From Pseudomonadales bacterium (lineage in GTDB: Bacteria > Patescibacteriota > Microgenomatia > UBA1400 > PJMF01), in contig JACKFW010000001.1 of assembly GCA_020632265.1 (NCBI GenBank), positions 218,981 to 282,980 of the forward strand: a DNA stretch of 64,000 nucleotides. The letters are read 5' to 3'. Every line of letters begins with the position of its first letter. Position 1 is the stretch's first letter. Made by a program: the position numbers and the translations under genes. Below, one piece after another: positions 2,449 to 42,140 of the stretch. The notes beneath the pieces were generated by a model, which ran no database searches, was not told where the DNA came from, and was given only the letters and a program-made list of their open reading frames with translations.

Positions 2449-4716
2449 ATGAAACAAAAAAAATCACTAATTTCTTTTTTAACTGCTCCTTTTTTAGTAG
2501 TTGCAATGATTTTTATTAGTTATATTTCTTTATTTCATAATGATGCAGGAAGCAATATTCAATATCTTCAATCAACTTTTGGAACAAACGCTGTAATTCT
2601 TATCAACGTTCTGTTATTAGTTTTAGTGATTCCTGTTTCTTTAACTTTAATGGAAATTATCACCGGTGAATTTGGCCTCGAGCGTTTCAAACGCATTGCA
2701 GCAATTAGTATTGGTATGACAACTTTGGGTTTTGCTACACTCCAATTTATCGGAGCAATTGCCACCTCATCCGCTGAAGGAGCAACGGTTGTAGTTGAAA
2801 TAGTCCAACAAATAGCTCATTTTTCTACTCAAGGAACTTTGGAACAATATGGTCTGGTGGGAATGCTAACATCAGATGCTTCTGGACCTTGGAATTCTAG
2901 CGTCTTTCCTCTTCTAATTTTAATAGTTTGGTTTATAAAAAGAAAAAAGGTTGGAATTGAGACAAAACAACTGCATATACCTATGATAGTTCAATGGATA
3001 CTTTATGCAGAACAATTTCTGTTTGGTTTGGATTTGCAATACACACTTTTAGAAATTATTCTCATGTTTATTACAGGAAGTATCTTTGTTTGGGGCATGA
3101 TTAGCTTCTTAGTTTCGATGTTTAGAGATGCTGAAAAAGCTGAAAAAAGCGCGGCTCAATTGGTAACTAAGACTGAAATTACTCAAAAAAAACAAAACCT
3201 TTACTCACGTTTTATCAATTTTCTTGCACATACTTCATTTAAAATTTTAACATTTAATCCATTGAATACACACGTAAATTCTGCAGACTCAAAAATAAAA
3301 AATAAAAAAGGAGGTTTTGGAAATATAGGTCGAGGCTATGTAATGGCTAATGCCCTTCAACTTACTATTGCCATGACCATAGCAATGTTTGCCCTGGTTT
3401 CTTCTATGCAGTTATTTGCAGTGCAAATTAGAATGAGTGATGCAGAAGCTGCTCTTTTTGGAACAGCAGGACTAACTAGCGCTCCAGAAGCTTTTGTAGC
3501 TTTTGCGGCTGGACCGTATATCAATGCACTGTTGCTTGTTGGCAGCAATATAATTGATGGCTGGATGTCAGCTATAGGTCAAATAATACTACTGGGTTAT
3601 GCTGAAATCGCAAGTAATGGAGCAATCGCTGCAATTCCACTACACCCAGCAATTAGATTCTTAACTTTTCTCTCATGGACTCAAGGCATGATTGTTTGGG
3701 CAACACTTGCGCTTTATGCTCATAAAATTAATTCAACCAAAAATAAAAAGCTTCTTAATTTTATCGTAATTGGAATGTTAATTTTTTCTATATTTTATTA
3801 TTTTGGAGGAGCATGGTACAGCGCACAAGCACTTGGATATGGTGCACAATATGCACAACAAAGCTATGTTTTCAGAGCTTTAGATAAAATTATTATGTTC
3901 TTAGCCAATCATCCAACCCAACAAATAGCACTCACGTTAAACATCTTTGGACTTGTCGGAATGTTTATTTTCTGGTCAGGTATTTCTACAAAATTATCAA
4001 ATCTTTTTTTTAATTCTGAAAAAGAAATTAATTCAAGCATTTCTGAACTACAATCAAAAATTAGCACCCGACTTAAAAGATTGGATCAACAAGTAATTAT
4101 TGTTTTAGATATAAGTGAAGATATGGATAAAGCTGGCAATTTCTTTAAGAATAAGTGGATTGATTTAGTATTCAGACAAGCCGCTGCACTTGGACTAATA
4201 TTGGACGATGATTCATATGTACCAGTTTATTCAACTCATGGAAAATTTGTTACAAAAATTAATCATCTTTTAACCAACAAAAATGCAGACGAATTTATTG
4301 AAAAATATATTGGTAGAGATACAGAAGGTATTATTGAATACGCTCCAGTCATCAAATCTATTTTCGAAGAATATCAAAACACACTAACTAAAGATCATGA
4401 CCCAATATTAGTACTTTTTATTACAGCTGGTGGTGGCACCGACACTCAAGAAACAATTGATACCTTTATTAAATTTGAAAAAACTCCAGTTTTTGTACAA
4501 TTTCTAGAAATTTTTGGTGAAAAAAGACATACAAACATTTCAAATCTTGAAAAGATCTCTAAACACCCTGGAAAATCGATTGATAATTCTGGATTATCTT
4601 CCCTACCTTTATATAGGATCACTGATGCAGGTCAAATTGTTGAAGAAGTGCTTAATAAATATCCTGAATATTTATCAAATGCATCCAAATTGGGAATAAC
4701 GAAAGAAAATACTTAA
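2449..4716 (+). CDS. Large polytopic membrane protein (755 aa) with a C-terminal cytoplasmic vWA-like domain.
   Basis: Many hydrophobic segments lie between residues 10-520. The C-terminal region QVIIVLDISEDMD ... ILVLFITAGGGTDTQET resembles a vWA fold, with a DxSxD-type MIDAS start and a hydrophobic strand ending in TDG-like residues. No close family recognised. Confidence 0.4.
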   Translation: MKQKKSLISFLTAPFLVVAMIFISYISLFHNDAGSNIQYLQSTFGTNAVILINVLLLVLVIPVSLTLMEIITGEFGLERFKRIAAISIGMTTLGFATLQFIGAIATSSAEGATVVVEIVQQIAHFSTQGTLEQYGLVGMLTSDASGPWNSSVFPLLILIVWFIKRKKVGIETKQLHIPMIVQWILYAEQFLFGLDLQYTLLEIILMFITGSIFVWGMISFLVSMFRDAEKAEKSAAQLVTKTEITQKKQNLYSRFINFLAHTSFKILTFNPLNTHVNSADSKIKNKKGGFGNIGRGYVMANALQLTIAMTIAMFALVSSMQLFAVQIRMSDAEAALFGTAGLTSAPEAFVAFAAGPYINALLLVGSNIIDGWMSAIGQIILLGYAEIASNGAIAAIPLHPAIRFLTFLSWTQGMIVWATLALYAHKINSTKNKKLLNFIVIGMLIFSIFYYFGGAWYSAQALGYGAQYAQQSYVFRALDKIIMFLANHPTQQIALTLNIFGLVGMFIFWSGISTKLSNLFFNSEKEINSSISELQSKISTRLKRLDQQVIIVLDISEDMDKAGNFFKNKWIDLVFRQAAALGLILDDDSYVPVYSTHGKFVTKINHLLTNKNADEFIEKYIGRDTEGIIEYAPVIKSIFEEYQNTLTKDHDPILVLFITAGGGTDTQETIDTFIKFEKTPVFVQFLEIFGEKRHTNISNLEKISKHPGKSIDNSGLSSLPLYRITDAGQIVEEVLNKYPEYLSNASKLGITKENT

Positions 4717-7866: not shown

Positions 7867-8631
7867 ATGTTACGACCAAGCGACAGACCTCTCATTGCCA
7901 TTACTGGAGCAAATATTATTCTTGATAAAGATGAAAGAGCACCTATTTCAGGAGTTAGAAAAGCATATTTAGATCTTGTTATAAATGCAGGTGGTATTCC
8001 TGTGCTTATCTCAAATACAACTGATCTCGAAGTTTTAGCAGCTATTGTTAAAAAATTTGACGGACTACTACTCACTGGTGGCGGTGATATTCACCCCTCC
8101 AGATACAAGGCCTATCCGAAAAAGGAATCGGGGAAAAATGGCCACACTTTTGATCCAAATCGCGATGTAGCAGAAATGTTTTTGGCTCAAGCCTTCATTA
8201 AAGATGGAAAAGCAGTGCTGGGAATTTGTAGGGGACTACAAATGATTAACGTTGCTTCAGGAGGCACGCTTAAACAACACGTTGAAGGACATTTTAATCC
8301 AAAAGAAAATGATTATTGGTATAATAAAATACATCCAGTTTTATTTCTTAATGATACATATTTGAGAAGACTAGCACAGAATGAAAGCTCAGCGGATATT
8401 ATCAGGGTAAATAGTCAACATCATCAAGCCATCGATAAAGTAGGTAGTGGTCTAAAAATTGCTGGAATTAATCCTGAAGATAATGTAATAGAAGCAATGG
8501 AGGGATTACAAATGCCCGAAAAATTTTTGTTAGGTGTTCAATGGCATCCAGAACTCTTTCCAGAAGACCCAATTACAAAAGCAATTTTAAATTTATTTGT
8601 CAAAAGTGCCACTGACCAAAAGAAGCAATAA
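7867..8631 (+). CDS. Class I glutamine amidotransferase-like hydrolase (peptidase C26, gamma-glutamyl hydrolase PuuD-like).
   Basis: GICRGLQMINVASGG contains the catalytic Cys in the GxCxGxQ context. A His-containing C-terminal motif is VQWHPE. Length 254 aa. Confidence 0.7.
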   Translation: MLRPSDRPLIAITGANIILDKDERAPISGVRKAYLDLVINAGGIPVLISNTTDLEVLAAIVKKFDGLLLTGGGDIHPSRYKAYPKKESGKNGHTFDPNRDVAEMFLAQAFIKDGKAVLGICRGLQMINVASGGTLKQHVEGHFNPKENDYWYNKIHPVLFLNDTYLRRLAQNESSADIIRVNSQHHQAIDKVGSGLKIAGINPEDNVIEAMEGLQMPEKFLLGVQWHPELFPEDPITKAILNLFVKSATDQKKQ

Positions 8632-8648
8632 ACACAAAGTTAGTTGAG

Positions 8649-9338
8649 TTATTGTTCCATCATGCTTTTCACGTCTTCAGGAATTTGAAAGTTTTCATTT
8701 ACTTCTGGAATTCCATTCTCTTCTTGCATCTTAGAAAAACTTTCTTGCATTTGCGTTGCAAAATCGGTAAATACCACATTTGTTGGTGGAACAAACATCT
8801 CATCTCCAAATGAATCTTTTTGACAGTCAACTTTGTAACCTGTCTTTTCGTATTCAGCAATAGCTTCAGGATTATAAAAATCGGGATAATCTCTTGAATA
8901 GTCCTCTACCTGCTCAACGGTTTTAGCCATTTCCTCTTCAGTTGGAAGCGCAGTTTTAATACCTTCTAGTGATCCCTCCTGCCATACATATGTGTAATCT
9001 CCATCATTAATCATATAATTAAACGTTTCATCTTGAAAAAAGGTTGTCTTCATTTTAGAACCCTTCAGATAATATACTAGTTCTGAATTATCTGGATTGG
9101 TAATCAAACAACGCAAAGGTTGGTCTTTGGCAATGGCTTGAGCCATCTCTTGGGCTTCTTGTTGCAATTCTTGAGTCGGAGTTTTTGGAGAAAACTTATT
9201 TAAAGCAAACACTAATAAAAGAATTCCTAAAATTGCAATAATTGCAATATTGGTAGGTTTTTTCATAAAATCCCTTTCAATCATTATTTTCTTGATTCTA
9301 TGCAAAAGATGATCGAAAAGCAATAGAAAATTTTCCAT
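8649..9338 (-). CDS. Hypothetical N-terminally membrane-anchored extracytoplasmic acidic protein. The likely true start is the internal Met at 9266.
   Basis: MKKPTNIAIIAILGILLLVFAL is a signal or anchor, and the remainder is hydrophilic and D/E-rich. No family recognised. Confidence 0.35.
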   Translation of the reverse strand: MENFLLLFDHLLHRIKKIMIERDFMKKPTNIAIIAILGILLLVFALNKFSPKTPTQELQQEAQEMAQAIAKDQPLRCLITNPDNSELVYYLKGSKMKTTFFQDETFNYMINDGDYTYVWQEGSLEGIKTALPTEEEMAKTVEQVEDYSRDYPDFYNPEAIAEYEKTGYKVDCQKDSFGDEMFVPPTNVVFTDFATQMQESFSKMQEENGIPEVNENFQIPEDVKSMMEQ

Positions 9339-9379
9339 TTCACTAAAGTCAAAATAATATCAAAATTTTGATCATCAAC

Positions 9380-9679
9380 TTATTTCTTCTTATCAAGCTT
9401 ATCTAAGCCTAAAATTGTAACGCCATAATATACAACCAAAGCAATTACTAGAAAATCAATTAAAACTCCAAGAAAACTTCCAATCATTATTTCTACTGAA
9501 CCAATCTTAATAATTGCAGTTTCAAGACCGCCCGCTGCACCAAGAACTATTCCCAAAAGCGGATTGATAATGTCACCAACAAGCGAAGCAACAACTTTAG
9601 AAACTGCTCCTCCCAAAATAAAACCAGTGGCCAAACCAACGACGCCTTGCTCTCTAATAAAATTCATGAAACCCTTCAT
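9380..9679 (-). CDS. mscL: Large-conductance mechanosensitive channel MscL.
   Basis: MKGFMNFIREQGVVGLATGFILGGAVSKVVASLVGDIINPLLG matches the MscL N-terminus and TM1 consensus. Length 99 aa with two TM segments. Confidence 0.75.
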   Translation of the reverse strand: MKGFMNFIREQGVVGLATGFILGGAVSKVVASLVGDIINPLLGIVLGAAGGLETAIIKIGSVEIMIGSFLGVLIDFLVIALVVYYGVTILGLDKLDKKK

Positions 9680-9828
9680 ATTATTTTCTCCTCAAGTATA
9701 GTTGTCACTATTATGTTATTAAAATGCCTAAGCATCAACTTAATAATACAATAGTTATAAAATAAATCAAAATGAAAATAAATAAATTAGTTCTTTATAC
9801 TTGCGCGTTTATTGTTTATGATTAATAC

Positions 9829-11520
9829 ATGTCTCTGCCTGACGAAAAATTAAAAAAACTCATCTTAAAAGCTGGAATCATTTCTAAAATTGATTTGCCT
9901 AAAATATCTCGATATGCAAAACGAGAAAACCTTACTTTAGAAGAAGCAATTATCAAAAAAGAGTTAATTACAGATTCTGATCTTGGCGTACTGATTGCTA
10001 GTAATTTAAAAATTCCTTTTGTTGATTTGTCTAAAATTGAACTAAATAATGAACTTTTATCAATAATTCCCGAAAGAATTGCCCATACCAGAAAAATAAT
10101 TGTTTTTGGAAGAGATGATAAAACTGTTAAAGTTGCCCTTTCTGATCCAGAAAATATTGAGTTATTAAAGATGATTGCTCATAAAACTGGTTTAGAGGTC
10201 TCGGTATATTATGCAACCAATAAAGATCTTGAAAAATCATTTATCCACTATAAAACTGATTATCAACAACTTTTTGAAAAACTTTTAAAAGAAGATAGAG
10301 CTCAAATAATTACAACAGTTGCGTATGATCCTCCAGTTAGAAAAATGGTTGATCTTTTGGTGGCCACTGCTTATCGAGAGAATGCCTCCGATATTCATAT
10401 AGAACCTAAAAAAAATAATTTTTTAATTAGATTTAGAATTGATGGAATTTTGCGTGACATGGCAACATTGCCCAAAGAAATTCATGAACGTGTTGTGACA
10501 AGAATAAAGGTCATGTCTAGATTAAGAATTGATGAACATTTTTCTTCTCAAGATGGAAAAATTTCAACTCAGGTGGATAATGAAAATTTGGATTTACGTA
10601 TCTCAATTCTTCCAATTGCAGATGGTGAAAAGATAGTCATACGTTTATTAGCTTCAAAATCCAATTTTTTCTCATTATCGGAACTTGGCATGAATGAGTC
10701 GGATCTAATGAAAGTTACTAAGGCATTCCAAAGTTCTTTTGGAATGATTATTTGCACGGGACCAACGGGATCTGGAAAAACAACAACAATTTATACGGTA
10801 ATCAAAAACATTAACACTAGAGACGTCAACATTACATCAATCGAAGACCCAATTGAATATAGAATTCAGGGTGCAAATCAAGTTCAAGTCAATGAAAAAA
10901 CAAACCTAACATTTGCAAATGGACTAAGATCTATCTTAAGACAAGATCCAGACAAAATTTTCGTCGGAGAAATACGAGATTCAGAAACTGCTAATATTGC
11001 TGTCAATGCTGCCCTAACAGGTCATTTAGTTCTTTCAACACTTCACACTAACAACGCAGCAACAGCCCTACCACGTCTTTTTGACATGGATGTTGAACCA
11101 TTTTTAGTTGTCTCCACAGTCAATTTAATTATCGCCCAGCGTCTAGTAAGAAAGATTTGTCAACACTGTAAAATTAGTAAAAAAACTCCAATGGCTGAGT
11201 TCTCAAAATTTTTCTCAAAAGAAATAATTAATAAATATTTTAAGTCAAATGGAAAAACTAATGAAATTGAAACATTCATGGGTAAAGGTTGCAGATTTTG
11301 TCATGACAGTGGATATTCTGGTCGAATTGGAATATACGAAATATTAGAAGTTAATGACAAAAATAAAGACTTAATTGCCTCAAAAGCTAGTGCTGAAGAC
11401 ATTGAGAATCAAGCAATAAAAGATGGTATGACGACAATGATTGACGACGGTGTTCAAAAAATTAAAGACGGTATGACGACAATGGAAGAAGTATTTAGAG
11501 TTACATCTGTTGCCAAATAA
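9829..11520 (+). CDS. pilB: Type IV pilus assembly ATPase PilB (GspE family).
   Basis: Walker A GPTGSGKTT, Asp box, His box LSTLHTNNAA. The N-terminal GSPII_E N-domain is about 150 aa. Length 563 aa. Confidence 0.9.
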   Translation: MSLPDEKLKKLILKAGIISKIDLPKISRYAKRENLTLEEAIIKKELITDSDLGVLIASNLKIPFVDLSKIELNNELLSIIPERIAHTRKIIVFGRDDKTVKVALSDPENIELLKMIAHKTGLEVSVYYATNKDLEKSFIHYKTDYQQLFEKLLKEDRAQIITTVAYDPPVRKMVDLLVATAYRENASDIHIEPKKNNFLIRFRIDGILRDMATLPKEIHERVVTRIKVMSRLRIDEHFSSQDGKISTQVDNENLDLRISILPIADGEKIVIRLLASKSNFFSLSELGMNESDLMKVTKAFQSSFGMIICTGPTGSGKTTTIYTVIKNINTRDVNITSIEDPIEYRIQGANQVQVNEKTNLTFANGLRSILRQDPDKIFVGEIRDSETANIAVNAALTGHLVLSTLHTNNAATALPRLFDMDVEPFLVVSTVNLIIAQRLVRKICQHCKISKKTPMAEFSKFFSKEIINKYFKSNGKTNEIETFMGKGCRFCHDSGYSGRIGIYEILEVNDKNKDLIASKASAEDIENQAIKDGMTTMIDDGVQKIKDGMTTMEEVFRVTSVAK

Positions 11521-11535: not shown

Positions 11536-12582
11536 ATGAAAAATCTAAGAATTTCTGGAAATGAGAAAATAAGTTTAATAGGTAATATGGCTACTATGCT
11601 TGGGGCTGGTATTCCCATGTTTGAAGCAGTTGAGGCATTGTTAGTTGATTCAAAAGGAGGGACAAAAAAAATTCTTGAGCAATTACAAGAGGATTTAACC
11701 GCCGGCCATCACATACATACAAATTTTGCTCGATTTCCGCGAGTTTTTGATAAGATCTCTGTAAATTTAATCAAAGCAGCTGAGGAGGCTGGAAAATTAG
11801 AGGTAATTCTCTTGGACCTTAGAAATAATCTCCAGAAAGAAATGGAATTTACCGATAGAATTAGGTCTGCTCTAACCTATCCAATACTAGTCTTAATTGT
11901 CTTTATTTTAGTAATATTCACTATGTTGATTGTGGTTATACCTAAGATTTCAACAGTATTTTCCCGTTTAAAGATGGATCTGCCTTTGCCTACGAAAATC
12001 TTAATTTTTGTATCTAATGCATTGCTAACATATTGGCCATTGATTTTAACTTTCTCAATAATCTCATTAGTGACAGTGTATTTTTTATACAGACAAAAAA
12101 AAGAGGTATTTTTATCTATGGTATTTTCTTTACCACTTGTTTCCAGACTTATGCAAGAAATCGATGTTACTCGCTTTACCAGAAGCATGCATCTTTTATT
12201 ATCATCTGGAATTCCATTCGTCTATGCTCTTGAACTTGCTCAAGAAGTGGTCTTAAAAAAGGAAGTATCTCAAATTATTAGAAGTGCCCGTGAACTTGCG
12301 CAGGAAGGAAAACAATTTTCTCAAGCTCTGAGAACTAAGGTAGGAGTCTTCCCAAGTGTTGCCGTAAAATTAATCGAAGTTGGTGAAAAAACTGGTCAAC
12401 TTGATAAATCTATGGGTGATATTTCAGAACAAATGGACTACACCGTCAGCAGAACTTTAGCATCTGTGACATCTTTGCTCGAACCACTCATGTTGGTTTT
12501 CGTAGGAATTTCTGTTGGGGCAATGATGATGGCTATTATCGCACCAATTTATGGATTAATCGGTCAAGTTGGTCAAAGATAA
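11536..12582 (+). CDS. pilC: Type IV pilus inner-membrane platform protein PilC (GspF family).
   Basis: Two GspF-type repeats with 3-4 TM segments. Immediately follows pilB. Confidence 0.8.
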   Translation: MKNLRISGNEKISLIGNMATMLGAGIPMFEAVEALLVDSKGGTKKILEQLQEDLTAGHHIHTNFARFPRVFDKISVNLIKAAEEAGKLEVILLDLRNNLQKEMEFTDRIRSALTYPILVLIVFILVIFTMLIVVIPKISTVFSRLKMDLPLPTKILIFVSNALLTYWPLILTFSIISLVTVYFLYRQKKEVFLSMVFSLPLVSRLMQEIDVTRFTRSMHLLLSSGIPFVYALELAQEVVLKKEVSQIIRSARELAQEGKQFSQALRTKVGVFPSVAVKLIEVGEKTGQLDKSMGDISEQMDYTVSRTLASVTSLLEPLMLVFVGISVGAMMMAIIAPIYGLIGQVGQR

Positions 12583-13108
12583 ATATTTATCATTACTAAG
12601 AAAAAGTATTATGGATAAAACCCAATTTTTAAAAAAATATAATGCTGGTTTTACCTTAATCGAATTAATTGTGGTAATTGCAGTTTTTTCAATTTTATTT
12701 TCAATTTCTTCAATTAGTTTGAGTGGATTAATTCCTAAAGCAAATTTTGTGACTCATTATGAATCCCTACTGTCAGATATAAAAGGACAACAACTTCGAT
12801 CAATGATAGGTGATACAAATGGCTCGGGTGATGGAAGTGCATATGGAATATATTTTGAAAGTAATCAATATACACTTTTCACTGGTCCTGCTTACAATCC
12901 AGTAGCAACTGATAATTATGTCATCGAACTTAGTCCTGGAATAAATATCACTGAAAATGTCCTTCCCTCTAGTAGTGTTGTTTTCTTACAAAATAGTGGT
13001 GAAATATCTGGATTTAATATTTTAACTTCTTCATTTAAATTAACTTCAGATTCGGGAGATGAAAAGCTAATCAATTTTAATGCGCTAGGGGTAGTGGTAT
13101 CAAATTAA
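12569..13108 (+). CDS. Minor pilin or pseudopilin (prepilin-type N-terminal cleavage/methylation domain).
   Basis: AGFTLIELIVVIAVFSILF has the G/FTLIE class III signal. The probable start is an internal Met that gives a shorter leader. Confidence 0.6.
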   Translation: MVKDKYLSLLRKSIMDKTQFLKKYNAGFTLIELIVVIAVFSILFSISSISLSGLIPKANFVTHYESLLSDIKGQQLRSMIGDTNGSGDGSAYGIYFESNQYTLFTGPAYNPVATDNYVIELSPGINITENVLPSSSVVFLQNSGEISGFNILTSSFKLTSDSGDEKLINFNALGVVVSN

Positions 13109-13109
13109 T

Positions 13110-15014
13110 ATGCAAAACCAAAAAGGACAATCAATTATTGAAGTATTACTAGCTTCAGCATTACTAATAATATTAATGCCAGCAATTTTTGCTGGATTAT
13201 TATCAACTCGCGAGGGTCGTGCACAACAACAAAAAAGAATTGATGCTTCATATTTTTTAAAAGAAACCCAAGAGGAAGTTAGAATTATTAGAGAGCGAGG
13301 TTGGTCACTTTTTGCCAACAATGGTGTATATCACCCAGAAAAGTCAGCTAATACGTGGATTTTATCTTCAGGTCCTGAAAGTGCTAATGGACTGATAAGA
13401 AGAGTTACAATTTCTGACGTATATCGTGATGAAACAGGAAAAATTAATGATGTGGGCGAAGTCGACAGCTCAACCAAATTAATCAATATTCTAGTAACCT
13501 GGACTGACCCATTTTATTCTAGCGTTGAAACATCATTTTATTTAACTAGGTATTTAGAAAATATTGCCTACATCGAAACATTAGAAAATGATTTTCTTCT
13601 TGGTGAAACTAACGGCACGACTGTTATTAATGAATCTGGAGGAGAAATTGTTCTAGGTGCGGGAGGAGAAGGCAACTGGTGCAATCCAAATGAATCAATA
13701 GTAGCTGAGCTAGATTTACCCAAAAATGGAGAAGCACTAGCTATTTCAGCAGTTGAAGGCCAAATCACAGCTGGCACCGGCGCAAATTCTTCTGGAGTTT
13801 CATTGGCAAATGTATCAATAAGTAATAGTAATCCTCCAATCGCCACGCTCGTTGGAACCTTTGATGGCTATAAAACTAACGATATTTTTTCAGAATTAGA
13901 TTATGCATATATTAGTACGGATACAAACAGCAAAGAAGTATCGATTATTAATATTAATAGCACTCCATATTCAGAGATAGGTTATGTTGATTTACCGGGA
14001 AATACAAATGCTGATGCTATTACAGTATCTGGACAAATTGGATATGTAGTTCAAGGAAGCATACTTTGGAACTTTGATTTAAGTAGTAAATCTGGATCAA
14101 GACCACTTTTAGATAATAATGGAGTCACGCTTGCTGGCAATGGAACCGAGGTTATTGTTGTCGGAAACTATGCTTATATTTCACTCATTGGAAATGTGGA
14201 AATGCAAATAGTTGATATTAGCAACTCTTCTAATCTAACCATCGTCGGTCAAGCCAACCTAAATGGAAATAATGGCCAGGACATTGCTGTCAATAGTACG
14301 GGTACCAGAGCTTATTTAATTACCAGTAAGTATGCTGGAAAATCAGAATTTTTTGTAATCGATACCACATCAAAAAATGGTGAACAACCGGTTTTAGGTT
14401 CATTAGATACGGGTGATATGAATCCAAAAGCAGTCATCATTGTTCCAGGTAATATTGCAATTGCAGCTGGACACGGCGGAGAACAATACCAAATTATTAA
14501 TATTTCACAGGATAATAATCCAAATTTGTGTGGAAGCTTAAACATTGGTAGTGATATTAATGATCTTGAAGCCATACTAGAAGCAGATGGCAATGCGTTT
14601 TCATATGTGTTAACAACAGATAGCTCTAGTGAACTTAAAATTATTGAGGGAGGCCCGGGAGGTCAATTTTCAACTGAAGGAACATTTGAATCTAATATAT
14701 TTGATGCAAACTACGATACAGTTTTCAATCGATTCGAAGCAAACACATATGAGCCTAGCTTAACAGCAATCAATTATCAATTTGCTGTTGCAGATGACAT
14801 CTCAGGCAGTTGTATTGGAGCCAATTATGTTTATGTCGGACCTGATGGTACTAATAGTACCTTTTTTTCTGGAACTGGCGCCATTCCTCTAGATAATGAT
14901 GGAATAGGATATGAAAATCCTGCTCAGTGTTTTCGCTATAAAGTATTTTTTACGTCTGAAAATAGCTTTACTTCGCCAATATTTGAAGATATAAGCATAA
15001 ATTATTCACCATGA
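13110..15014 (+). CDS. Large minor pilin (634 aa) with a prepilin N-terminus and an extended beta-propeller-like repeat domain (LVIVD-repeat-like).
   Basis: N-terminus KGQSIIEVLLASALLIIL has G at -1 and E at +5. Internal repeats include YAYISLIGNVEMQIVDISNSSNLTIVGQANL, AYLITSKYAGKSEFFVIDTTS and AVIIVPGNIAIAAGHGGEQYQIINIS. Two Cys near the C-terminus. Ends with TGA, which overlaps the next ATG. Confidence 0.5.
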   Translation: MQNQKGQSIIEVLLASALLIILMPAIFAGLLSTREGRAQQQKRIDASYFLKETQEEVRIIRERGWSLFANNGVYHPEKSANTWILSSGPESANGLIRRVTISDVYRDETGKINDVGEVDSSTKLINILVTWTDPFYSSVETSFYLTRYLENIAYIETLENDFLLGETNGTTVINESGGEIVLGAGGEGNWCNPNESIVAELDLPKNGEALAISAVEGQITAGTGANSSGVSLANVSISNSNPPIATLVGTFDGYKTNDIFSELDYAYISTDTNSKEVSIININSTPYSEIGYVDLPGNTNADAITVSGQIGYVVQGSILWNFDLSSKSGSRPLLDNNGVTLAGNGTEVIVVGNYAYISLIGNVEMQIVDISNSSNLTIVGQANLNGNNGQDIAVNSTGTRAYLITSKYAGKSEFFVIDTTSKNGEQPVLGSLDTGDMNPKAVIIVPGNIAIAAGHGGEQYQIINISQDNNPNLCGSLNIGSDINDLEAILEADGNAFSYVLTTDSSSELKIIEGGPGGQFSTEGTFESNIFDANYDTVFNRFEANTYEPSLTAINYQFAVADDISGSCIGANYVYVGPDGTNSTFFSGTGAIPLDNDGIGYENPAQCFRYKVFFTSENSFTSPIFEDISINYSP

Positions 15015-15559
15015 TGCATAACAAAAATCTAACTAAAAATATTTTTCAAAAAGGCTTTAACATTCGCAAAAGTTTTTCCCTTCAAAAAGGCTTCACTCTC
15101 GTGGAATTATTAATTTACATGGGTCTTTCAATGATTTTGCTGGCAATTATTTCCGGAATATTTATATCAGTACTAAGTGTTAGAAACGAATCAATCAAAT
15201 CTTCAAGTTTGGAAAGGGAAGGAAGATATATTTTAGCCCGCCTTTCCCACGATGTTTACTCTGCTCAAGATATTATTGAGCCAGCTACGTTGGGCGAAAG
15301 CTCAACAACACTTCAATTATTAGTTAATTCTGACCTTTTTACCTACTCAATAAATGATGATAAACTATATTTAACAAATACATCTGGAACTCATTTACTC
15401 AGTGGTGAATCTGTGAATGTAATGAGTTTTAATGTTACTAGATTAGGTAACGAAGGTGGTAAAAATGCTGTTGAAATTGAACTCACTACTCAAAGTCAAA
15501 ATGTTTCAGAGGGTAAAATAGAAAATCGTAATTACCAATTTATTTTAGCGTTAAGATGA
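15011..15559 (+). CDS. Minor pilin or pseudopilin.
   Basis: KGFTLVELLIYMGLSMILLAI prepilin signal. Overlaps its neighbours by 4 nt. Confidence 0.6.
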   Translation: MMHNKNLTKNIFQKGFNIRKSFSLQKGFTLVELLIYMGLSMILLAIISGIFISVLSVRNESIKSSSLEREGRYILARLSHDVYSAQDIIEPATLGESSTTLQLLVNSDLFTYSINDDKLYLTNTSGTHLLSGESVNVMSFNVTRLGNEGGKNAVEIELTTQSQNVSEGKIENRNYQFILALR

Positions 15560-15945
15560 AAAATAACCATACTAAATCATCATCTGGACATATTTTAATT
15601 ACTTTGTTAATTGTAATGGTGGTGGGAATGATAATTAGTACTGCAGCAATTTCTTGGGTAATTGACAATACAATTGGCAACTCACAAACTCACCAAGGAC
15701 TTACTGCTCTAACTGCTGCCGAAAGTGGTATTGAAAATGCTATGCTATTACTACTAAGAAATCCTGATTATTCTGGAGAGGTATTGGAAATTGCAGACGC
15801 AACAGTTACCGTTACTGTTTCTGGATCAGATGAGAAGACTATTATTTCTCAATCAATCGAAAACAATTACTCAAGAAAAATTGAAGTAACTGCGACATAT
15901 ATCAATAATATTTTAACTATCACTTCTTGGAAAGAATCGATTTAA
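15556..15945 (+). CDS. Minor pilin-like protein (PilX-like, atypical signal).
   Basis: SSGHILITLLIVMVVGMIISTAAI has G followed by a hydrophobic helix but no Glu at +5. Operon position is between the pilins. Confidence 0.4.
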   Translation: MKNNHTKSSSGHILITLLIVMVVGMIISTAAISWVIDNTIGNSQTHQGLTALTAAESGIENAMLLLLRNPDYSGEVLEIADATVTVTVSGSDEKTIISQSIENNYSRKIEVTATYINNILTITSWKESI

Positions 15946-15949
15946 AAAC

Positions 15950-17065
15950 ATGAATAAAAGCAGCCACCAAATTATCTTCATTTATAAAAATAAATTGTTT
16001 TTTTGTCATCCTGAAAAAAAAGAGAGCTTAGAATTTCCCTTAAGTAGCGATATTATTAAAGATCTGACTATTATTGATGAAGCAAAGCTAAAAAAATCCC
16101 TAGAATCGTTTTTAAGCAAAACTCAAATAACTGATAATGAAACATTGATTATCTTAAATAAGAATACTTATTTTAGAACTACAATTGAAAGTCCTGAGCT
16201 AAACCCGGAAAACAATAAAGTTATAATTGATCAATTTTCTGATTTAGTACCTTTTGATGATATCTTTGTCAAACAATTTAACCTGCATAAAAAGTTAGAA
16301 GTTGTCGCTATTAATAGAGAATTTTACGAACCAATTTTAAGTGTTTTGCAAAAATTAAAATTTAATATAACTATGATTCTTCCAGATCTAGTAGTAAAAG
16401 ACTATATCGGCGAAGCTAGTTGCACACCAGAAGAAAACAGTGCGTTATTAAAAGTTTTAAATAAGCTTGGTCAATATGATCTCCTTGGATCGGGTCACAT
16501 ATTATTAAGTAAAACTAAAATTGATCTTGCTCCAATCAAAGCAGAAAACAAACGTCTATATATTTTGGTTGGTCTTTTTGCAATTTTAATTATAATGTTA
16601 GTTGGAGTAATTATTTTTAACTCTAATAGAACCTATGGTCCTCCAATCATAGATAAAATTCCACCGGAATTAGAGACAATAATTGAAACGAAAAAACCTA
16701 GTATTGCATCTGACTCATCTCAAGCTTCCAATTCAGGTGAGTTAAGTGAAGGAATTTCCAGTAGCTCATCTGCTCTTTTAGATTTAGATCAATACACATT
16801 GAGAGTCTTAAATGGTTCGGGAATAAGCGGACAAGCAAACGTTGTCAAAAGTGATTTGCAAAAAGCTGGTTTTAAAAATATTGATATTGGAAATGCGCAA
16901 AAAATTTCCTCTAATAAAACTCAAATACTACTAAATCCTAAATTACCTAGCGAAGTCAGAGCGCTACTTTTAAATGTTTTAGAAAATTTTGGACAAGAAT
17001 ACACTATCCAAGAAAATAGTGAATTAAACTATGACGTAGTGATAACAACTACCTCAGCCAATTAA
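15950..17065 (+). CDS. Pilus-operon protein of three parts: an approximately 190-aa cytoplasmic domain (possibly PilM N-terminal-like), a single TM, and a C-terminal extracytoplasmic LytR_C-like domain.
   Basis: TM segment LYILVGLFAILIIMLVGVIIF. C-terminal YTLRVLNGSGISGQANVVKSDLQKAGFKNIDIGNAQK...TQILLNP...DVVITT matches the LytR_C consensus VxVLNGxGxxGlA...L...GF.v...gNA. Confidence 0.4.
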   Translation: MNKSSHQIIFIYKNKLFFCHPEKKESLEFPLSSDIIKDLTIIDEAKLKKSLESFLSKTQITDNETLIILNKNTYFRTTIESPELNPENNKVIIDQFSDLVPFDDIFVKQFNLHKKLEVVAINREFYEPILSVLQKLKFNITMILPDLVVKDYIGEASCTPEENSALLKVLNKLGQYDLLGSGHILLSKTKIDLAPIKAENKRLYILVGLFAILIIMLVGVIIFNSNRTYGPPIIDKIPPELETIIETKKPSIASDSSQASNSGELSEGISSSSSALLDLDQYTLRVLNGSGISGQANVVKSDLQKAGFKNIDIGNAQKISSNKTQILLNPKLPSEVRALLLNVLENFGQEYTIQENSELNYDVVITTTSAN

Positions 17066-17149
17066 CATATATCTACTTGACCTATAAACAAAAAATGATC
17101 TATTATTAATGTATATATAGTAAATTATTAATTATAAGAAGGTCAACTT

Positions 17150-17611
17150 ATGAAACTGCCATCATTAAAAAAACTAAATAAAGGTTTCACCCTTATTGAG
17201 CTATTAGTTGTTATAGGTATTCTAGCTATTTTATTAGCTATAGTTCTTATTGCTATTAATCCGGCTAGACAATTTGCTCAAGCAAATAATACTCAGCGTC
17301 GAAGTGATGTTAATGCTATCCTAAATGCAATACATCAATATGCAGCTGATAACTCGGGTGCACTTCCGGCAGGTATAACAACTACCGCTACAAATGTATC
17401 TGACACAGGTGCTGATATTTGTGCATTACTAGTTTCTGATTATTTAGCAGCATTGCCAGTTGATCCAACTGCCGGAGAACCCGTTGATGAGGCAGGATGT
17501 GCACTCGAATATGACACAGGATACACAGTCGTTACCAGTGCAACAAATAATAGAGTCACTGTAACTGCTCCATCAGCAGAGTTGGGTGATGTTATTTCTG
17601 CAACAAGATAA
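17150..17611 (+). CDS. pilA: Major type IV pilin (PilA-like).
   Basis: MKLPSLKKLNKGFTLIELLVVIGILAILLAIVLIAINP is a classic type IVa prepilin signal plus alpha1 helix. SD AAGAAGG lies upstream. Length 153 aa. Confidence 0.8.
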   Translation: MKLPSLKKLNKGFTLIELLVVIGILAILLAIVLIAINPARQFAQANNTQRRSDVNAILNAIHQYAADNSGALPAGITTTATNVSDTGADICALLVSDYLAALPVDPTAGEPVDEAGCALEYDTGYTVVTSATNNRVTVTAPSAELGDVISATR

Positions 17612-17640
17612 TATTATTAATTAATAAATTAATTAACATT

Positions 17641-17671
17641 AAAAAAGGACCAATTAAATTGGTCCTTTTTT
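17641..17671. terminator. Bidirectional rho-independent terminator between convergent pilA and the RRM-protein gene.
   Basis: aaaaaa GGACCAA ttaaa TTGGTCC tttttt. This is a 7-bp perfect stem and a 5-nt loop, flanked by an A-run and a T-run. Confidence 0.6.
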
Positions 17672-17715
17672 CTTAGATAACTTTAAATTTTATAATTTAA
17701 AGAGATTGCAGCTGA

Positions 17716-18066
17716 TTAATATCTACCGCCACCTCTATTGTTATTACCTTGGCTATCATTTCTTCTGTTGTTGTAACCACCAGAATTGTCTCTAGGAACT
17801 CTTGGTCTTGCAACGTTAACAACGATTTCTCTGCCTTCAAGTACGTAACCATTAAGTGCCTTTGTGGCAGCCTCTGCTTCTTCTACAGTATCGTAAGTAA
17901 TGAAAGCAATACCTTTTGATCGACCACTCATGCGGTCAACAATCAATACTCCATCAACAACTTTTCCATATTGAGAAAAGAGATTTACTATTGTTTCTTC
18001 CGTTGTACTAAACGGAATGCTCCCAACGAAAAGTTTCTTTGGGTTTTCTTGTGGTGCATCTTGCAT
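17716..18066 (-). CDS. RRM-domain RNA-binding protein with a Gly/Asn/Arg-rich C-terminal tail.
   Basis: RNP-1-like KGIAFITY and RNP-2-like KLFVGSIPF. The tail is ...GGYNNRRNDSQGNNNRGGGRY. SD AAAGGAGG lies upstream on the minus strand. Confidence 0.8.
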   Translation of the reverse strand: MQDAPQENPKKLFVGSIPFSTTEETIVNLFSQYGKVVDGVLIVDRMSGRSKGIAFITYDTVEEAEAATKALNGYVLEGREIVVNVARPRVPRDNSGGYNNRRNDSQGNNNRGGGRY

Positions 18067-18214
18067 GCGCCTCCTTTAATCATGCTCGATAAATCGAGCT
18101 TACTTAATGCTCAGAATAAACCGAGCTTATATACTCAGTCAAGAACAATGATAACTCAATAAGTGAAATACTGTTCAAAACTGTGTATAGTATAACATAG
18201 TTTGGAAAATAAGT

Positions 18215-18802
18215 ATGAAGATAATATATTTAGTTCGACATGGACAGAAAATTAAAGAAATTGGTGATCCTGGATTAACTCAATTGGGAATCGAACAAGC
18301 AAAGCTTGCTGGAAAATTTCTCAGTCAATTTCCAATTAATTATATCTTTTCAAGCCCACTCAAAAGAACTGTCGAAACAGCAATACATATTTCAAAAATA
18401 TTAAATTTAAATCATCAAATAGATGATGATTTAACTGAAAGAATGAATTGGAGCGATCCAAAAATTTCTAAAGATGAATTTATACAAGAATGGATTGAGT
18501 CATCTAATAATCGGTCTTATATTCCTAAGTTTGGTGATTCATCTTTAATAACAGGCTCAAGAATTGAAAGATTAATCAACAAGGTTCCAGAAGAAAGTCA
18601 TATTTTATTAGTATCTCATGGAGGAGCAATCGTTGATTATTTGAGAAATGTATTTGGAGATCATAAACTCAACAAATTGAGAAGTCAATTTGACTATGGA
18701 ATGGATTATAAAATGCATAACTGCTCAATAAACTGCGTAACTTTAGATGCAAATTCTAAAATTAATCTTCTAAATTATACAAAACATCTTGAGAAAAAAT
18801 AA
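18215..18802 (+). CDS. Histidine phosphatase superfamily (phosphoglycerate-mutase-like) protein.
   Basis: IIYLVRHGQ contains the RHG catalytic motif. LLVSHGGAI is the second His motif. Confidence 0.7.
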   Translation: MKIIYLVRHGQKIKEIGDPGLTQLGIEQAKLAGKFLSQFPINYIFSSPLKRTVETAIHISKILNLNHQIDDDLTERMNWSDPKISKDEFIQEWIESSNNRSYIPKFGDSSLITGSRIERLINKVPEESHILLVSHGGAIVDYLRNVFGDHKLNKLRSQFDYGMDYKMHNCSINCVTLDANSKINLLNYTKHLEKK

Positions 18803-18829
18803 TTATATCAATATTGATTGAAAATTATT

Positions 18830-19309
18830 TTACATTATTAAAATTTCATACTTAAGTTTTTTTGTAATATTTGGATCTTTATCACTTGGAAAGGTATCGT
18901 AAAACTCTAAAAATTTTTTGGACAATTTTCTTCCTTTAATAGTATGAGATCTCCTTTTTTCGTCTTCATAACTTCCTGAGAAATTTTCTGAGTCCTTGTA
19001 AAGAGTAAACTCTTCGTGTACATAAGTATGTCGGTGTTTAATAAATTCAAATTTCTCAAACATTGAATCATATCTGACTTTTAAGAAACATATATAATCC
19101 TTACCCACTTGAAAATCCAATTCTCTTGAGATTTGATTATTAGAAACTGTACGAACTAAATGATATTTATAATAAATGAAGCTTCCGCTTGAAGAATAAA
19201 TAGTTGTTTTAATATCAAAAGTTTGTCCTCCAAAACTGAGTGGATTTTCCAAAATACTTTCGGTCAAATAACTAATTAATGTAAGAACTGCTCCTGTATG
19301 AGGTTGCAT
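18830..19309 (-). CDS. Hypothetical protein, last gene of the putative copper operon.
   Basis: 159-aa ORF. No family recognised. Confidence 0.3.
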   Translation of the reverse strand: MQPHTGAVLTLISYLTESILENPLSFGGQTFDIKTTIYSSSGSFIYYKYHLVRTVSNNQISRELDFQVGKDYICFLKVRYDSMFEKFEFIKHRHTYVHEEFTLYKDSENFSGSYEDEKRRSHTIKGRKLSKKFLEFYDTFPSDKDPNITKKLKYEILIM

Positions 19310-19384: not shown

Positions 19385-19624
19385 TCATAAAACCTTATAT
19401 CCAAGACCTTCAATTTTTTTCTTTATTTGAATTTCATCAACCTTAGTATGATCAAAAATTATGATTGTTTTCTGCTTAGCATAACTTGTTTTTACTTCTA
19501 AAATCCCCATTAAATCCTCTAATTCGCCATCAATATTCATACTACAACTACTGCAATGCATACCCCGAATTTTCAACTCTAGCGTTGTTCCTTCAATTTT
19601 TTTGTTTTTAAACAATCTGAACAT
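19385..19624 (-). CDS. copZ: CopZ-like copper chaperone (HMA domain).
   Basis: GMHCSSCSMNI is the metal-binding loop, a CxxC variant of GMxCxxC. Length 79 aa with a ferredoxin-like fold. Confidence 0.7.
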   Translation of the reverse strand: MFRLFKNKKIEGTTLELKIRGMHCSSCSMNIDGELEDLMGILEVKTSYAKQKTIIIFDHTKVDEIQIKKKIEGLGYKVL

Positions 19625-19649
19625 ATCTTTAATAACTTTCTGTGTTTTT

Positions 19650-20762
19650 TTATATTACTTCTAAAATACCGGTATACATTCCCATTGAACAAGAATAAGT
19701 AAATTTACCTCTTTTTGTTGGAGTAAACATAAAAGTTTGTGAATCAGTAGGTTTCAAAAATACAGAAATCCCAAATTCTTTAAAAATAAAAGCCGATGCA
19801 CAAGAATATGTATCATTTGTTGAAACTGTTAATTCGACGGGAACACCAGATTTAACAACTACATAGTTTGGTGAATAGCCAGAACTCAAGGCTTTAATAT
19901 TAATTTTTTGTACTCCATTAGTAATTGAAGCTAAATCTAAGGAATTGGCAAATCTGTCATCCGAAAAAAAATAGGTAATTGGGCTAACTAGCTTGTTTAT
20001 TGTAAATGATGAATCCATAACTATTAAAACTCCATTAATGCTATAAATCGCCATACCAATTAATACAACTGCTGCAAATTTCATAAATTTTTCATGCCAA
20101 CCTTCTGAAAGTTTAGCTGTAGCTATACCAATAATTGCAAATAATGGGGTAGTGCCTAAAATAAATGAGAACATAATTAGAGCACCTAAAAAGGGATTAC
20201 CGGAACTTATTGCAAGAACTTCCATTGCCTGAGTAATTCCACAAGGAATAAATACTGTTAAAAAACCTAGTAAAGCGGGTGCGAAAAGTGCCTTGCTTTT
20301 TGTAGAATTTCTCACAATTTTTTGAATAAATTTTGGTGGCTGAAAAACCATATATCTAAATATTGGATGAACATCTAATAAATTCATGGCTGTACCAAAC
20401 ATAAATAGTGCAGTGAAAACTTGAAAAACTAGTCTTACCCCCAAGCTTAAGGATAATGTTGATCCCAGCCATCCAAGTAAAAAACCTAAAATAACGTGTG
20501 CAACAACCTTTGTCAATAAAAACATACCCACAGGCATCCAATCGAGATCATCAAAAGATTTTAAAGAAAAATTGCTTTGTTGTAATGTTTTTGCATATTT
20601 CTTTCGCTTGTTTTTTTTGTCTTTATCCTTATCTGAAATTGACTCATCAAATTCTCGATCCTTTTGATTGGCAATAATGCTTGTCAATAATCCACCTTGC
20701 ATAGCCAAACAAGACAAACCCCCGGTAGTTAAACCAGTTAAAAATATGACCCATAAATTCAT
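19650..20762 (-). CDS. DsbD_2/UreH-like two-Cys membrane permease fused to a C-terminal cupredoxin-like domain.
   Basis: N-terminus FLTGLTTGGLSCLAMQGGLL. Second Cys in a TM helix: FIPCGITQAMEVL. The C-terminal approximately 90 aa, NYVVVKSGVPVELTVSTNDTYSCASAFIFKEFGISVFLKP...FTYSCSMGMYTGILEVI, has a cupredoxin-like strand pattern with Cys/Met candidate ligands. Confidence 0.45.
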   Translation of the reverse strand: MNLWVIFLTGLTTGGLSCLAMQGGLLTSIIANQKDREFDESISDKDKDKKNKRKKYAKTLQQSNFSLKSFDDLDWMPVGMFLLTKVVAHVILGFLLGWLGSTLSLSLGVRLVFQVFTALFMFGTAMNLLDVHPIFRYMVFQPPKFIQKIVRNSTKSKALFAPALLGFLTVFIPCGITQAMEVLAISSGNPFLGALIMFSFILGTTPLFAIIGIATAKLSEGWHEKFMKFAAVVLIGMAIYSINGVLIVMDSSFTINKLVSPITYFFSDDRFANSLDLASITNGVQKINIKALSSGYSPNYVVVKSGVPVELTVSTNDTYSCASAFIFKEFGISVFLKPTDSQTFMFTPTKRGKFTYSCSMGMYTGILEVI

Positions 20763-20822
20763 AATACTATTCCATTGTAAACTTATTAATTTATATTATC
20801 TTAACACTCTTTGTACTACGCA

Positions 20823-23093
20823 TTATAGTTTAATTTTTCTAAGCCTTAAAGCATTAGATACAACTGAAAGACTTGAAAATGCCATAGCAGCTGATGCTAA
20901 CATAGGATTCAATTGAATGCCCCAAATTGGATAAAGTGCCCCCATTGCTACTGGAATTAACAAAATGTTGTAACCAAATGCCCAAGCTAAATTTTGTTTT
21001 ATATTTTGCATGGTTAATTTGGATAAGTGAATGGCCTGTGGCACCAATGAGATATCACTTCGAAGTAAAGTTATTCCCGCAGATTCAATGGCAACATCTG
21101 TTCCCAAGCCCATTGCTATCCCAACATCGGCTGCAGCAAGAGCTGGAGCATCATTAATACCATCTCCTATGAACCCAACTACATCGCCATTTTTTCTCAA
21201 TTCTTTTACTTTCTGCTCTTTATCATCAGGTAATACTTCAGCAATATACTCTGAAAGTCCAATAGAATTTGCAATGTATTTGGCAGTTCCAGCGTTATCA
21301 CCCGTCATCATAAGTACTTTAACACCGATATCCGACAACTTCTTGATAACATTTCTTGATTCCTCTTTAACCGCATCAGCTATACCCAAAGACAATAAGT
21401 GTATATTATTTACTGATATGTAGGTAACTGTATGTCCATTATTCTGCCAATCTTGTGATTTTTGATCTAGCTTCTTATTTGGTTCAGTACCATTTTCTAC
21501 TAAAAACTTACGATTTCCTACTAAAACATCCTTACCGTCAACAACTCCCATAACTCCTTTTCCCGGAATATCTTTAAAATTTTTAACCTCAAATTTTTGA
21601 CCTTTATTCTTTGCAAAATATTTTACAACTGCATCAGCTAAAGGATGATGTGACTTTGTTTCAACAGACATAATTAAAGATTGTAAATAGGTCTTAAAGT
21701 TCAAATTATCTGGTAAAGTCCAATTAAAAGCTTTTTCGATTAAAGCTAAATCATCTGAAAATTCTGCTTTTTGAACCTCTGGTTTTCCTTTCGTTAAAGT
21801 TCCAGTTTTATCGAAAATTATTGTGGTGATCTTATTAGCTGTCTCCAGTGCCTCAGCATTCTTGATTAAAATACCAATTTGTGCCCCTTTACCAATACCA
21901 ACCATTAAAGATGTGGGTGTCGCCAAACCTAAGGCACATGGACAAGCAATAATTAAAACTGAAATCATACTAACAAGCGCTCTAATTAATTTTGGTTCAG
22001 GACCAAAGAAAAACCATATCCCAAAAGTAAGAATTGATAGCACTATTACTACTGGAACAAAATATGATGACACAACGTCTACTAATTTTTGAATTGGAGG
22101 TCTTGAACCTTGAGCTGATTTAACTAATTGAATAATGTTTGCTAACATAGTATCGGAACCAATTTTCTCAGTTTTCATTTCAAAAGACCCAGATTTATTT
22201 ATAGTCGATCCAATAACTCGATCTCCCTTAATTTTTTCAACTGGCAAACTCTCACCAGTAACCATACTTTCATCTAAATAACTTGTTCCAGAAAACACTA
22301 CTCCGTCAACTGGAACTTTCTCACCTGGCTTAACCAATAAAATGTCTCCAACTTTAAGCTTAGAAATTTGGACATCTTTGACAGTTTTCCCAATAACTAA
22401 ATGTGCAACCTTTGCTTGCAGTCCAATTAACTTTTTGATTGCTAAAGAGGTTTGGCCTTTTGCTCTAGTTTCAAAGTATTTACCAAGTAATATCAGGGTA
22501 ATAATTGTTGCTGATGTTTCAAAATATACATGTGTCTGAATTCCATTACTTTCAAATGAATTCTTAAATATCAAAACTATGATCGAAAAAAAATAAGCCA
22601 CGGAAGTGCCAAGTACGATTAATGTATCCATGTTGGTAGTTTTATTTAGAAAAGCAGACCAAGCACTTTTATAATAATTTTTACCAACCCAAAACTGAAT
22701 TGGTGTTGCAAGTAAAAACATCACCCATGGATTCATTAAAATTTTTGGTGAAAACGGAATCATTGATCCAATCAATAAAAATATGGTTAAAAAAACACTA
22801 AGAAACAATCTATTTTTAAGACTTGCTATTTCAACATTTCTTTCTTTCTCCGCCAAATCGGTGGTGTCTTCAACTCCAATATGAGCTTGATAACCTAGGG
22901 ACTCAACAGCTTTAGATGCTAGAAAAGCATTAAATTTATGTTCATTAATTACGAGAGTGGCTTGCTCATTAGCATAATTTACATTTGATGAGATTACTCC
23001 GTGAGTTTTAGTTAGCTTTCTTTGAACGTTAGAAGCACAACTTGCGCAATGCATACCTGAAACATGAAATGAGATGGTTTTATTGCCCGACAT
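20823..23093 (-). CDS. copA: Copper-translocating P1B-type ATPase CopA.
   Basis: N-terminal [14 protein letters not shown]. Membrane CPC motif [18 protein letters not shown] and [10 protein letters not shown] motifs. Length 756 aa. Confidence 0.9.
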
Positions 23094-41142: not shown

Positions 41143-41156
41143 AAATTATTCATAAT

Positions 41157-42137: not shown

Positions 42138-42140
42138 ATT

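Follow-up and report, generated by a model that had tools for sequence, protein, structure and literature searches.

A minor pilin fused to an LVIVD-type beta-propeller is a core, slowly evolving component of Microgenomates pilus operons

The window analysed here, a 64,000-nucleotide stretch of contig JACKFW010000001.1 (assembly GCA_020632265.1), contains an operon for type IV pili (T4P) whose fourth gene encodes a protein of 634 amino acids (aa), hereafter the propeller pilin. Two conclusions about this protein are well supported: it is a modular minor type IV pilin, in which a pilin module is combined with a seven-bladed LVIVD-type beta-propeller and with a beta-sandwich resembling carbohydrate-binding modules (CBMs), and its gene is a core, slowly evolving member of the pilus operon in the Microgenomates, a group of ultrasmall bacteria within the candidate phyla radiation (CPR, or Patescibacteria). 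As to function, we consider it probable, if by no means assured, that the propeller pilin is a core member of a tip or priming complex, where it displays a module for binding a conserved ligand. An original prediction, made from the letters of the window alone, had described a pilin with propeller-like repeats and had proposed it as a tip adhesin and as the best candidate for a host- or surface-recognition determinant in the window. As we show below, the architecture it described holds up well, the role in recognition less so.

The open reading frame (ORF) and its prepilin-type signal are present exactly as originally described, and an NCBI entry identical to the product is annotated as a hypothetical protein. 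The N-terminus reads MQNQKG/QSIIEVLLASALLIIL (the slash, here and below, marks the predicted cleavage site), with Gly at -1 and Glu at +5, and continues after E11 with a hydrophobic stretch, VLLASALLIILMPAIFAGLL, of the roughly 20 residues expected of pilins. Across an alignment of 49 homologues, Gly6 and Glu11 (that is, Glu+5) are each at least 90% conserved, and the G....E motif recurs in 81 of 85 orthologous ORFs; the +1 residue is Gln in 71. The Pfam N_methyl family matches 19 of the 49 homologues at E<=0.01; TIGR02532 has no match in the 634-aa protein, on which NCBIfam as a whole returned just a meaningless match to ComGE (E=0.34). Given the conserved Gly-1/Glu+5 pair and the long pilin alpha-1 helix described below, the N-terminus behaves as a prepilin signal, and we infer that the protein is cleaved after Gly6.

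The model that AlphaFold2 built from the 49-sequence alignment (mean predicted local distance difference test score, pLDDT, 88.3; predicted template modelling score 0.71) divides the protein into three modules: a pilin module, a propeller and a C-terminal sandwich. In the first of these, a helix of 59 residues (aa 5-63) is followed by a small sheet with strands at aa 72-79, 82-87, 90-92, 95-106, 117-131 and 137-146 (pLDDT about 77-91), all of which recur when the structure is predicted with the propeller deleted. As modelled, helix and sheet make up the classical pilin 'lollipop'. Searches of the PDB at the sequence level were less informative, in that a profile of the N-terminal 178 aa yielded only insignificant matches to pilin alpha-1 helices (E between 0.27 and 3.4), while the whole protein and a profile of the C-terminal domain had no match.

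The propeller is predicted with confidence, and together with the N-terminal helix it bears out the fold that had been anticipated. It comprises 28 strands in all, 27 of them within aa 197-514 and one, aa 179-182, that in the model would close blade 7. Tandem repeats of about 40 aa make up the blades, and the repeat strings that had first suggested a propeller (beginning YAYIS and AYLITS, and the region ending in QIINIS) are real, corresponding to blades 4, 5 and 6. The suspected relationship to the LVIVD repeat is likewise confirmed: Pfam LVIVD (PF08309) matches the 634-aa pilin once, above its gathering score (28.7 versus 20.2 bits; E=8.2e-7), and since the family is matched in all 49 homologues, with a best E-value of 4e-14, the match is not due to chance. 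Homologues of about 1020 aa confirm that the propeller is a discrete module, because they contain a tandem duplication of exactly the unit spanning aa ~177-520, with both of its cysteines kept. In one of the related loci (L002, positions 8001-11057, protein P0009), as in other homologues of about 1020 aa, a single pilin thus carries two propellers; there the gene is followed by an extra gene of 302 aa that has no counterpart in the operon of the window.

Beyond the propeller lies a C-terminal module that the original prediction had overlooked. We modelled it, together with the pilin head, in a propeller-deleted chimera (aa 64-182 joined to aa 517-634, aligned to the full-length homologues), which reached a pLDDT of 91; the chimera is artificial, and the way it packs the sandwich against the pilin head is not to be trusted. 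A Foldseek search of the PDB with this model returned CBM6/35 domains and domain III of Cry toxins (E between 6e-5 and 5e-3), which characterises the predicted module as a jelly-roll sandwich of the CBM/lectin type, with putative sugar binding. Pilin heads were absent from the top matches of the chimera in that search, so that the pilin module is not assignable to a GspH/I/J/K-type class. Strand order in the model suggests that the propeller is inserted into the sandwich. The strands and short helix at aa 152-173, which join pilin head and propeller and fall outside the duplicated propeller unit of a 1018-aa homologue, would then probably be the N-terminal part of a split sandwich.

Four cysteines, C191, C474, C568 and C607, are invariant in the 49-sequence alignment, one pair in the propeller and one in the sandwich, which suggests two extracellular disulfides. 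In a Levybacteria relative (L001, positions 12800-15124), a thioredoxin gene and a gene for a DsbD_TM/redoxin fusion directly follow the pilus operon, an arrangement that is suggestive because of these four cysteines and that is not present in the window.

How widespread is this protein? A word-indexed search returned 526 matches to the 634-aa pilin, and an exhaustive search of cluster representatives at 50% identity returned 304 relatives at E<=1e-30, with the layout of 630-690 aa kept down to about 31% identity among the representatives. Among the species representatives of GTDB, relatives occur in at least 220, at 31-71% full-length identity. Relatives with informative names are Levy-, Ames-, Gottesman-, Roizman-, Woese- and Pacebacteria, all of them members of the Microgenomates group. 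For this reason, and in view of the 27-34% GC content of the window, the labels 'Pseudomonadales' and 'Gammaproteobacteria' that are attached to the identical protein and to many metagenome-assembled genomes look like submission placeholders.

Conservation extends from the protein to its surroundings. We compared the operon across 82 related loci, representing some 80 species of Microgenomates, and found one gene order throughout, namely pilB, pilC, minor pilin 1, propeller pilin, minor pilin 3, a PilX-like gene, a PilM/N-like gene and the major pilin. The series is complete in 47 loci, and in nearly all of the other 35 the same order is ended by contig ends. The genes for the propeller pilin and for minor pilin 1 are found in 82 of 82 loci, the former strictly in single copy and at a fixed position. 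This membership in a fixed eight-gene operon had escaped the original prediction, as had the conserved Gln at +1.

As a measure of evolutionary rate, we used the median identity of the window's proteins to their orthologues in the related loci. Among the pilins, the major one is the most conserved (62%), PilB and PilC follow at 53% and 51%, and the propeller pilin, at 47%, comes close behind them and ahead of the PilX-like protein (42%), minor pilin 1 (35%) and minor pilin 3 (34%). The fastest-evolving gene of the operon is that for the PilM/N-like protein (24%, over partial coverage). Since the propeller pilin has changed little faster than PilB and PilC, its job is most likely a conserved one.

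Within the protein, the 49-sequence alignment has a mean column identity of 56% and 59 invariant columns, many of them charged. The propeller is the most conserved module, with a mean pairwise identity of 0.58 compared with 0.49-0.51 for the pilin and C-terminal modules. Conservation is highest in blades 1, 2, 6 and 7, as well as in the A-B and C-D loops, whereas insertions and deletions and other variability are concentrated in blades 3-5, in the loops D-A and B-C and in those of the sandwich at aa 541-600. This pattern fits a conserved, buried face (an interface or a conserved site) and a more variable, exposed one. A determinant of host range that diversifies rapidly would not leave such a pattern. 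The comparison across related genomes that had been proposed as a check on the adhesin idea reveals a conserved family whose variability clusters in blades 3-5 and certain loops, and the part of the original prediction that singled out the gene as the best candidate for host recognition is weakened accordingly.

Table 1. Features of the propeller pilin and of the pilus operon that encodes it (positions refer to the window)
Feature	Position	Strand	Basis and remarks
PilB-type assembly ATPase (gene 1 of the operon)	9829..11520	+	Pfam T2SSE E=4e-127, plus MshEN
PilC-type platform protein	11536..12582	+	Pfam T2SSF E=1e-47
Minor pilin 1 (G/FTLIE), 165 aa	12611..13108	+	N_methyl E=1.5e-8, TIGR02532, weak ComGD/GspH
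Modular minor pilin (propeller pilin), stop codon included	13110..15014	+	ORF list; 634 aa, ATG start
Leader peptide MQNQKG, aa 1-6, class III (prepilin) signal	13110..13127	+	Sequence; predicted cleavage after Gly6
Alpha-1 helix of pilin module, aa 7-63, with Glu+5 (E11) and invariant Pro24	13128..13298	+	AlphaFold2 model, conservation
Beta-sheet head of pilin module, aa 72-146	13323..13547	+	AlphaFold2 strands
Strands and short helix joining pilin head and propeller, aa 152-173	13563..13628	+	AlphaFold2 secondary structure
Predicted seven-bladed LVIVD-type beta-propeller, aa 179-514, with invariant Cys191 and Cys474	13644..14651	+	
Stretch matched by Pfam LVIVD, aa 342-381, blade 4	14133..14252	+	PF08309
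Predicted C-terminal jelly-roll beta-sandwich, CBM/galactose-binding-like type, aa 523-634, with invariant Cys568 and Cys607	14676..15011	+	
Minor pilin 3 (G/FTLVE)	15011..15559	+	Pfam N_methyl E=1e-6
Small PilX-like pilin-like protein (G/HILITLL in the window)	15556..15945	+	Weak PilX_N match, E=0.14
PilM/N-like bitopic protein with extracellular LytR_C domain	15950..17065	+	Pfam LytR_C E=1.4e-8, conserved operon position
Major pilin (G/FTLIE), 153 aa	17150..17611	+	N_methyl E=4e-9, GspG-like
Palindromic hairpin of 14 pairs, T-runs on both strands	17641..17671	.	Terminator-like; between major pilin and convergent RRM gene

The operon itself (Table 1) comprises eight tightly packed genes on the plus strand, with start and stop codons that overlap or abut; the start of minor pilin 3, for instance, overlaps the stop of the propeller pilin (ATGA). 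For minor pilin 1, the ORF listing begins at a TTG at 12569, but the ATG at 12611 is the likely start, and the protein is called as 165 aa on another contig. Orthologues of the small PilX-like protein mostly read G/Q at the cleavage site, and 72 of 79 are without the G....E motif, i.e. have no Glu+5, which makes this protein a candidate capping subunit. The penultimate gene is assigned a putative PilM/N-like role by its position. Its product, of 371 aa, contains a Ser-rich linker, and it is unusual for a pilus alignment protein to bear a LytR_C domain. The hairpin downstream of the major pilin gene likely marks the end of the operon. A PilT gene was not found within the 64-kb window, and tRNA, tmRNA and Rfam families were not detected across it. 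A promoter scan gave 48 sites in the window against 40.6 +/- 6.7 in shuffled sequence, i.e. no enrichment; one site lies upstream of the major pilin gene, and we have not otherwise used the scan as evidence.

How, then, might the propeller pilin work? After removal of the leader behind Gly, the mature protein would begin with Gln and carry Glu at +5. Helix alpha-1 and the small sheet would act as a normal pilin module, allowing the protein to enter the pilus via the PilB/PilC machine encoded just upstream, with the CBM-like sandwich grafted on this module and the LVIVD propeller apparently set into the sandwich. Its gene is translationally coupled to those of three other minor pilins, and the four products would together make up the tip or priming complex of the pilus in Microgenomates, leaving propeller and sandwich exposed at the tip. 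In tip complexes of type II secretion systems and T4P, the subunit without Glu+5 (GspK, PilX) is the top-most one. By analogy, the PilX-like protein, which lacks Glu+5 in most species, would cap the filament, and the propeller pilin, which retains it, would sit beneath. In effect, the function of the PilY1 propeller would be fused into a pilin. The conserved job might then consist in nucleating or capping the pilus and in binding a conserved ligand, most plausibly a glycan on the surface of a host or partner cell; discrimination between hosts in a lineage-specific manner appears less likely.

Several points weigh against this proposal. Pfam N_methyl (PF07963) scores only 15.0 bits on the 634-aa pilin, under its gathering score of 21.2, the likely reason being that Gln replaces Phe at +1. 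A Gln in this position is itself atypical among PilD substrates. A prepilin peptidase gene was not found within the window. The conservation of the propeller pilin relative to its neighbours is somewhat inflated, since the loci were picked by similarity to that very protein, and the conserved and variable loops were assigned to faces by textbook propeller convention and not from coordinates. Finally, high conservation is equally compatible with a purely structural role.

All alternatives that we considered are ranked below the reading as a ligand-binding subunit of a tip or priming complex. In its stronger form, the original prediction would have propeller and sandwich act as the receptor-binding part that chooses each lineage's host cell or surface, in the manner of phage receptor-binding proteins or variable adhesins. 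The propeller pilin is indeed the largest pilin of its locus and exposes folds of a binding type, its counterpart in the saccharibacterium TM7x, PilX2, influences host binding, blades 3-5 and the sandwich loops do vary by insertion and deletion, and some lineages have duplicated the propeller. Nevertheless, we regard such a determinant as unlikely: full-length identity is 42-52% over about 80 species from several candidate phyla, near that of PilB and PilC and well above that of the neighbouring minor pilins, the propeller is the best conserved part of a protein with many invariant columns, a good number of them charged, and no cassette-like variation is seen in what is a single-copy gene at a fixed operon position. 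Just as unlikely, in our view, is a purely structural subunit that nucleates assembly, plugs or stabilises the tip, or counters retraction without being adhesive, its bulky module acting like the conserved C-terminal propeller of PilY1. Conservation reminiscent of machinery, an obligatory place in every operon and the highly conserved A-B/C-D loop face and blades 1, 2, 6 and 7 speak for such a subunit, as does the PilY1 analogy discussed in PMC8179133 and PMC11623550. However, deletion of the propeller pilin of TM7x left filament extrusion working (PMC11623550), the additional CBM-like sandwich is a typical ligand-binding fold, and the PilY1 family (PF05567) is without a match at E<=1.

One might also imagine that the propeller catches extracellular DNA on behalf of an uptake pilus, for nucleotide scavenging or transformation. 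Minor pilins such as ComZ, ComP and FimT act as DNA receptors in other bacteria. Yet the match of the propeller to YncE is no better than those to dozens of unrelated WD40 propellers, and T4P-2 pilin mutants of TM7x have no competence defect (PMC11623550); we consider a DNA receptor very improbable. Least probable of all is that the protein is not a pilin, being instead either a surface protein that is anchored by an uncleaved N-terminal transmembrane helix, as in many LVIVD cell-surface proteins, and merely encoded inside a pilus operon, or a pilus-borne enzyme with a catalytic propeller, perhaps one that resembles a polysaccharide lyase and works alongside a CBM. The N_methyl score below threshold, the atypical Gln+1 and the many invariant charged residues of the propeller point in this direction. 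A CBM beside a propeller is, moreover, a common enzyme layout. Modular pilins with predicted peptidase modules also exist (PMC8179133).

The conserved Gln+1 deserves separate attention. Of the five pilins that the operon encodes, the propeller pilin and the PilX-like protein share it, while the other three read G/F...E; the sites concerned lie at 13125-13130 and within 15556-15945 of the window and recur in loci L004-L083. In archaeal pilins processed by EppA, Gln+1 is typical and becomes pyroglutamate. The shared Gln+1 may reflect a different N-terminal modification or a different peptidase. A more far-reaching and improbable reading of the data is that the tip carries a strictly conserved propeller-plus-CBM machine that does more than stick, or else that Gln+1 belongs to a separate maturation route. 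The machine may act as a pilus-borne enzyme, or as a universal receptor that recognises a conserved polymer of the host envelope; the separate route could be marked by pyroglutamate formation as in EppA-type pilins and, if real, would suggest that CPR bacteria have a distinct branch of pilin maturation that is archaeal-like.

Elsewhere in the window and its relatives, a number of genes also relate to the cell surface or are noteworthy in their own right. A cluster at 40087-43493 encodes a Glycos_transf_4 (GT4-family) transferase, a UbiA-type prenyltransferase and a PMT-family protein O-mannosyltransferase, a possible route for the O-glycosylation of pilins or other surface proteins. On the minus strand, a weak match to a sortase domain at 23947-24642 (26.1 bits, against a Pfam cut-off of 26.6) hints at a second, sortase-dependent system of surface display. 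Also on the minus strand, motifs at 19385-23093 point to a putative copper-handling cluster of a P-type ATPase (756 aa), an HMA-type metallochaperone (79 aa) and a polytopic membrane protein (370 aa) whose C-terminal domain is soluble. A 755-aa protein at 2449-4716 combines a C-terminal vWA-TerF-like domain (E=7e-21) with an N-terminal region of about 540 aa that has no assignment. In locus L002, downstream of the pilus operon (15221-19057), a protein of more than 1300 aa fuses RCC1 propeller repeats to an M23 peptidase domain and is possibly a surface protein that attacks cell walls.

To our knowledge, no member of the Microgenomates has been cultivated. The propeller pilin, as the sole bulky subunit of a ligand-binding type in every Microgenomates pilus operon examined, offers a good experimental handle on CPR pili. 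Its machinery-like conservation contrasts with reports on the pilins of Saccharibacteria and suggests a common ligand or a structural role across the class, in which case results obtained in one species would be transferable to many.

A comparison with better-known systems places these observations in context. In the T4aP of Gram-negative bacteria, PilY1/PilC brings a seven-bladed propeller to the tip together with four minor pilins and functions in priming and adhesion, much as is proposed here for the propeller pilin; in both proteins the propeller is the conserved part. PilY1, however, is a non-pilin that docks on minor pilins, whereas here the propeller is covalently fused to one, and we regard the likeness as a functional analogy only. 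Tip pseudopilins of the GspK/PilX type resemble the propeller pilin in being the largest of a four-member set of minor (pseudo)pilins and in carrying an extra domain; but in GspK this domain is an alpha-helical insert and Glu+5 is absent, whereas the propeller pilin keeps Glu+5 and its small PilX-like neighbour lacks it. Homology to PilY1, GspK and RCC1 propellers was weighed and rejected, there being no supporting Pfam matches.

By analogy, the closest studied counterpart is PilX2 of TM7x (Nanosynbacter lyticus, Saccharibacteria), a minor pilin that bears a seven-bladed propeller of the RCC1 type at its C-terminus; deleting PilX2 halves host binding while filament extrusion continues, and the protein has been proposed as a tip adhesin (PMC11623550). 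A second TM7x pilin, PilX1, bears a lectin-like jelly roll, and these two large pilins have non-canonical signal peptides (PMC11623550). Like the propeller pilin, PilX2 is a CPR minor pilin, the largest of its locus, in which a lollipop and a seven-bladed propeller are combined behind a non-canonical signal peptide. Differences are nonetheless apparent, keeping in mind that PilX2 was compared by its description. Its propeller is of the RCC1 type and ours of the LVIVD type (the RCC1 Pfam families had no match at E<=1 in the 634-aa pilin), the jelly-roll sandwich resides on a separate pilin in TM7x and on the same subunit as the propeller here, and the TM7x pilins are reported to be poorly conserved across Patescibacteria, whereas the present family is far better conserved.

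More broadly, modular type IV pilins, which combine a pilin with a grafted functional module, are established, widespread, thought to be exposed at the tip and expected to bind ligands (Raynaud et al. 2021, PMC8179133), with PilB (pilin plus vWA) and PilC (pilin plus lectin) of S. sanguinis as examples (PMC8179133). The propeller pilin, with its pilin module, LVIVD propeller and CBM-like sandwich, matches the definition of Raynaud et al. Dataset S1 of that study lists the architecture IPR012902-IPR013211(xN) and enters LVIVD as a 'motif of unknown function' (PMC8179133). Since IPR013211 is the LVIVD repeat, the combination of pilin and LVIVD had already been catalogued. Our literature searches on LVIVD with pilin, and on Microgenomates pilins with a propeller, found nothing relevant. 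What the present analysis adds to the catalogue is the fold, the sandwich domain, the fixed position in the operon and the slow evolution. As the design principle, a grafted module or a propeller at the tip, was already established, the propeller pilin extends known biology rather than overturning it.

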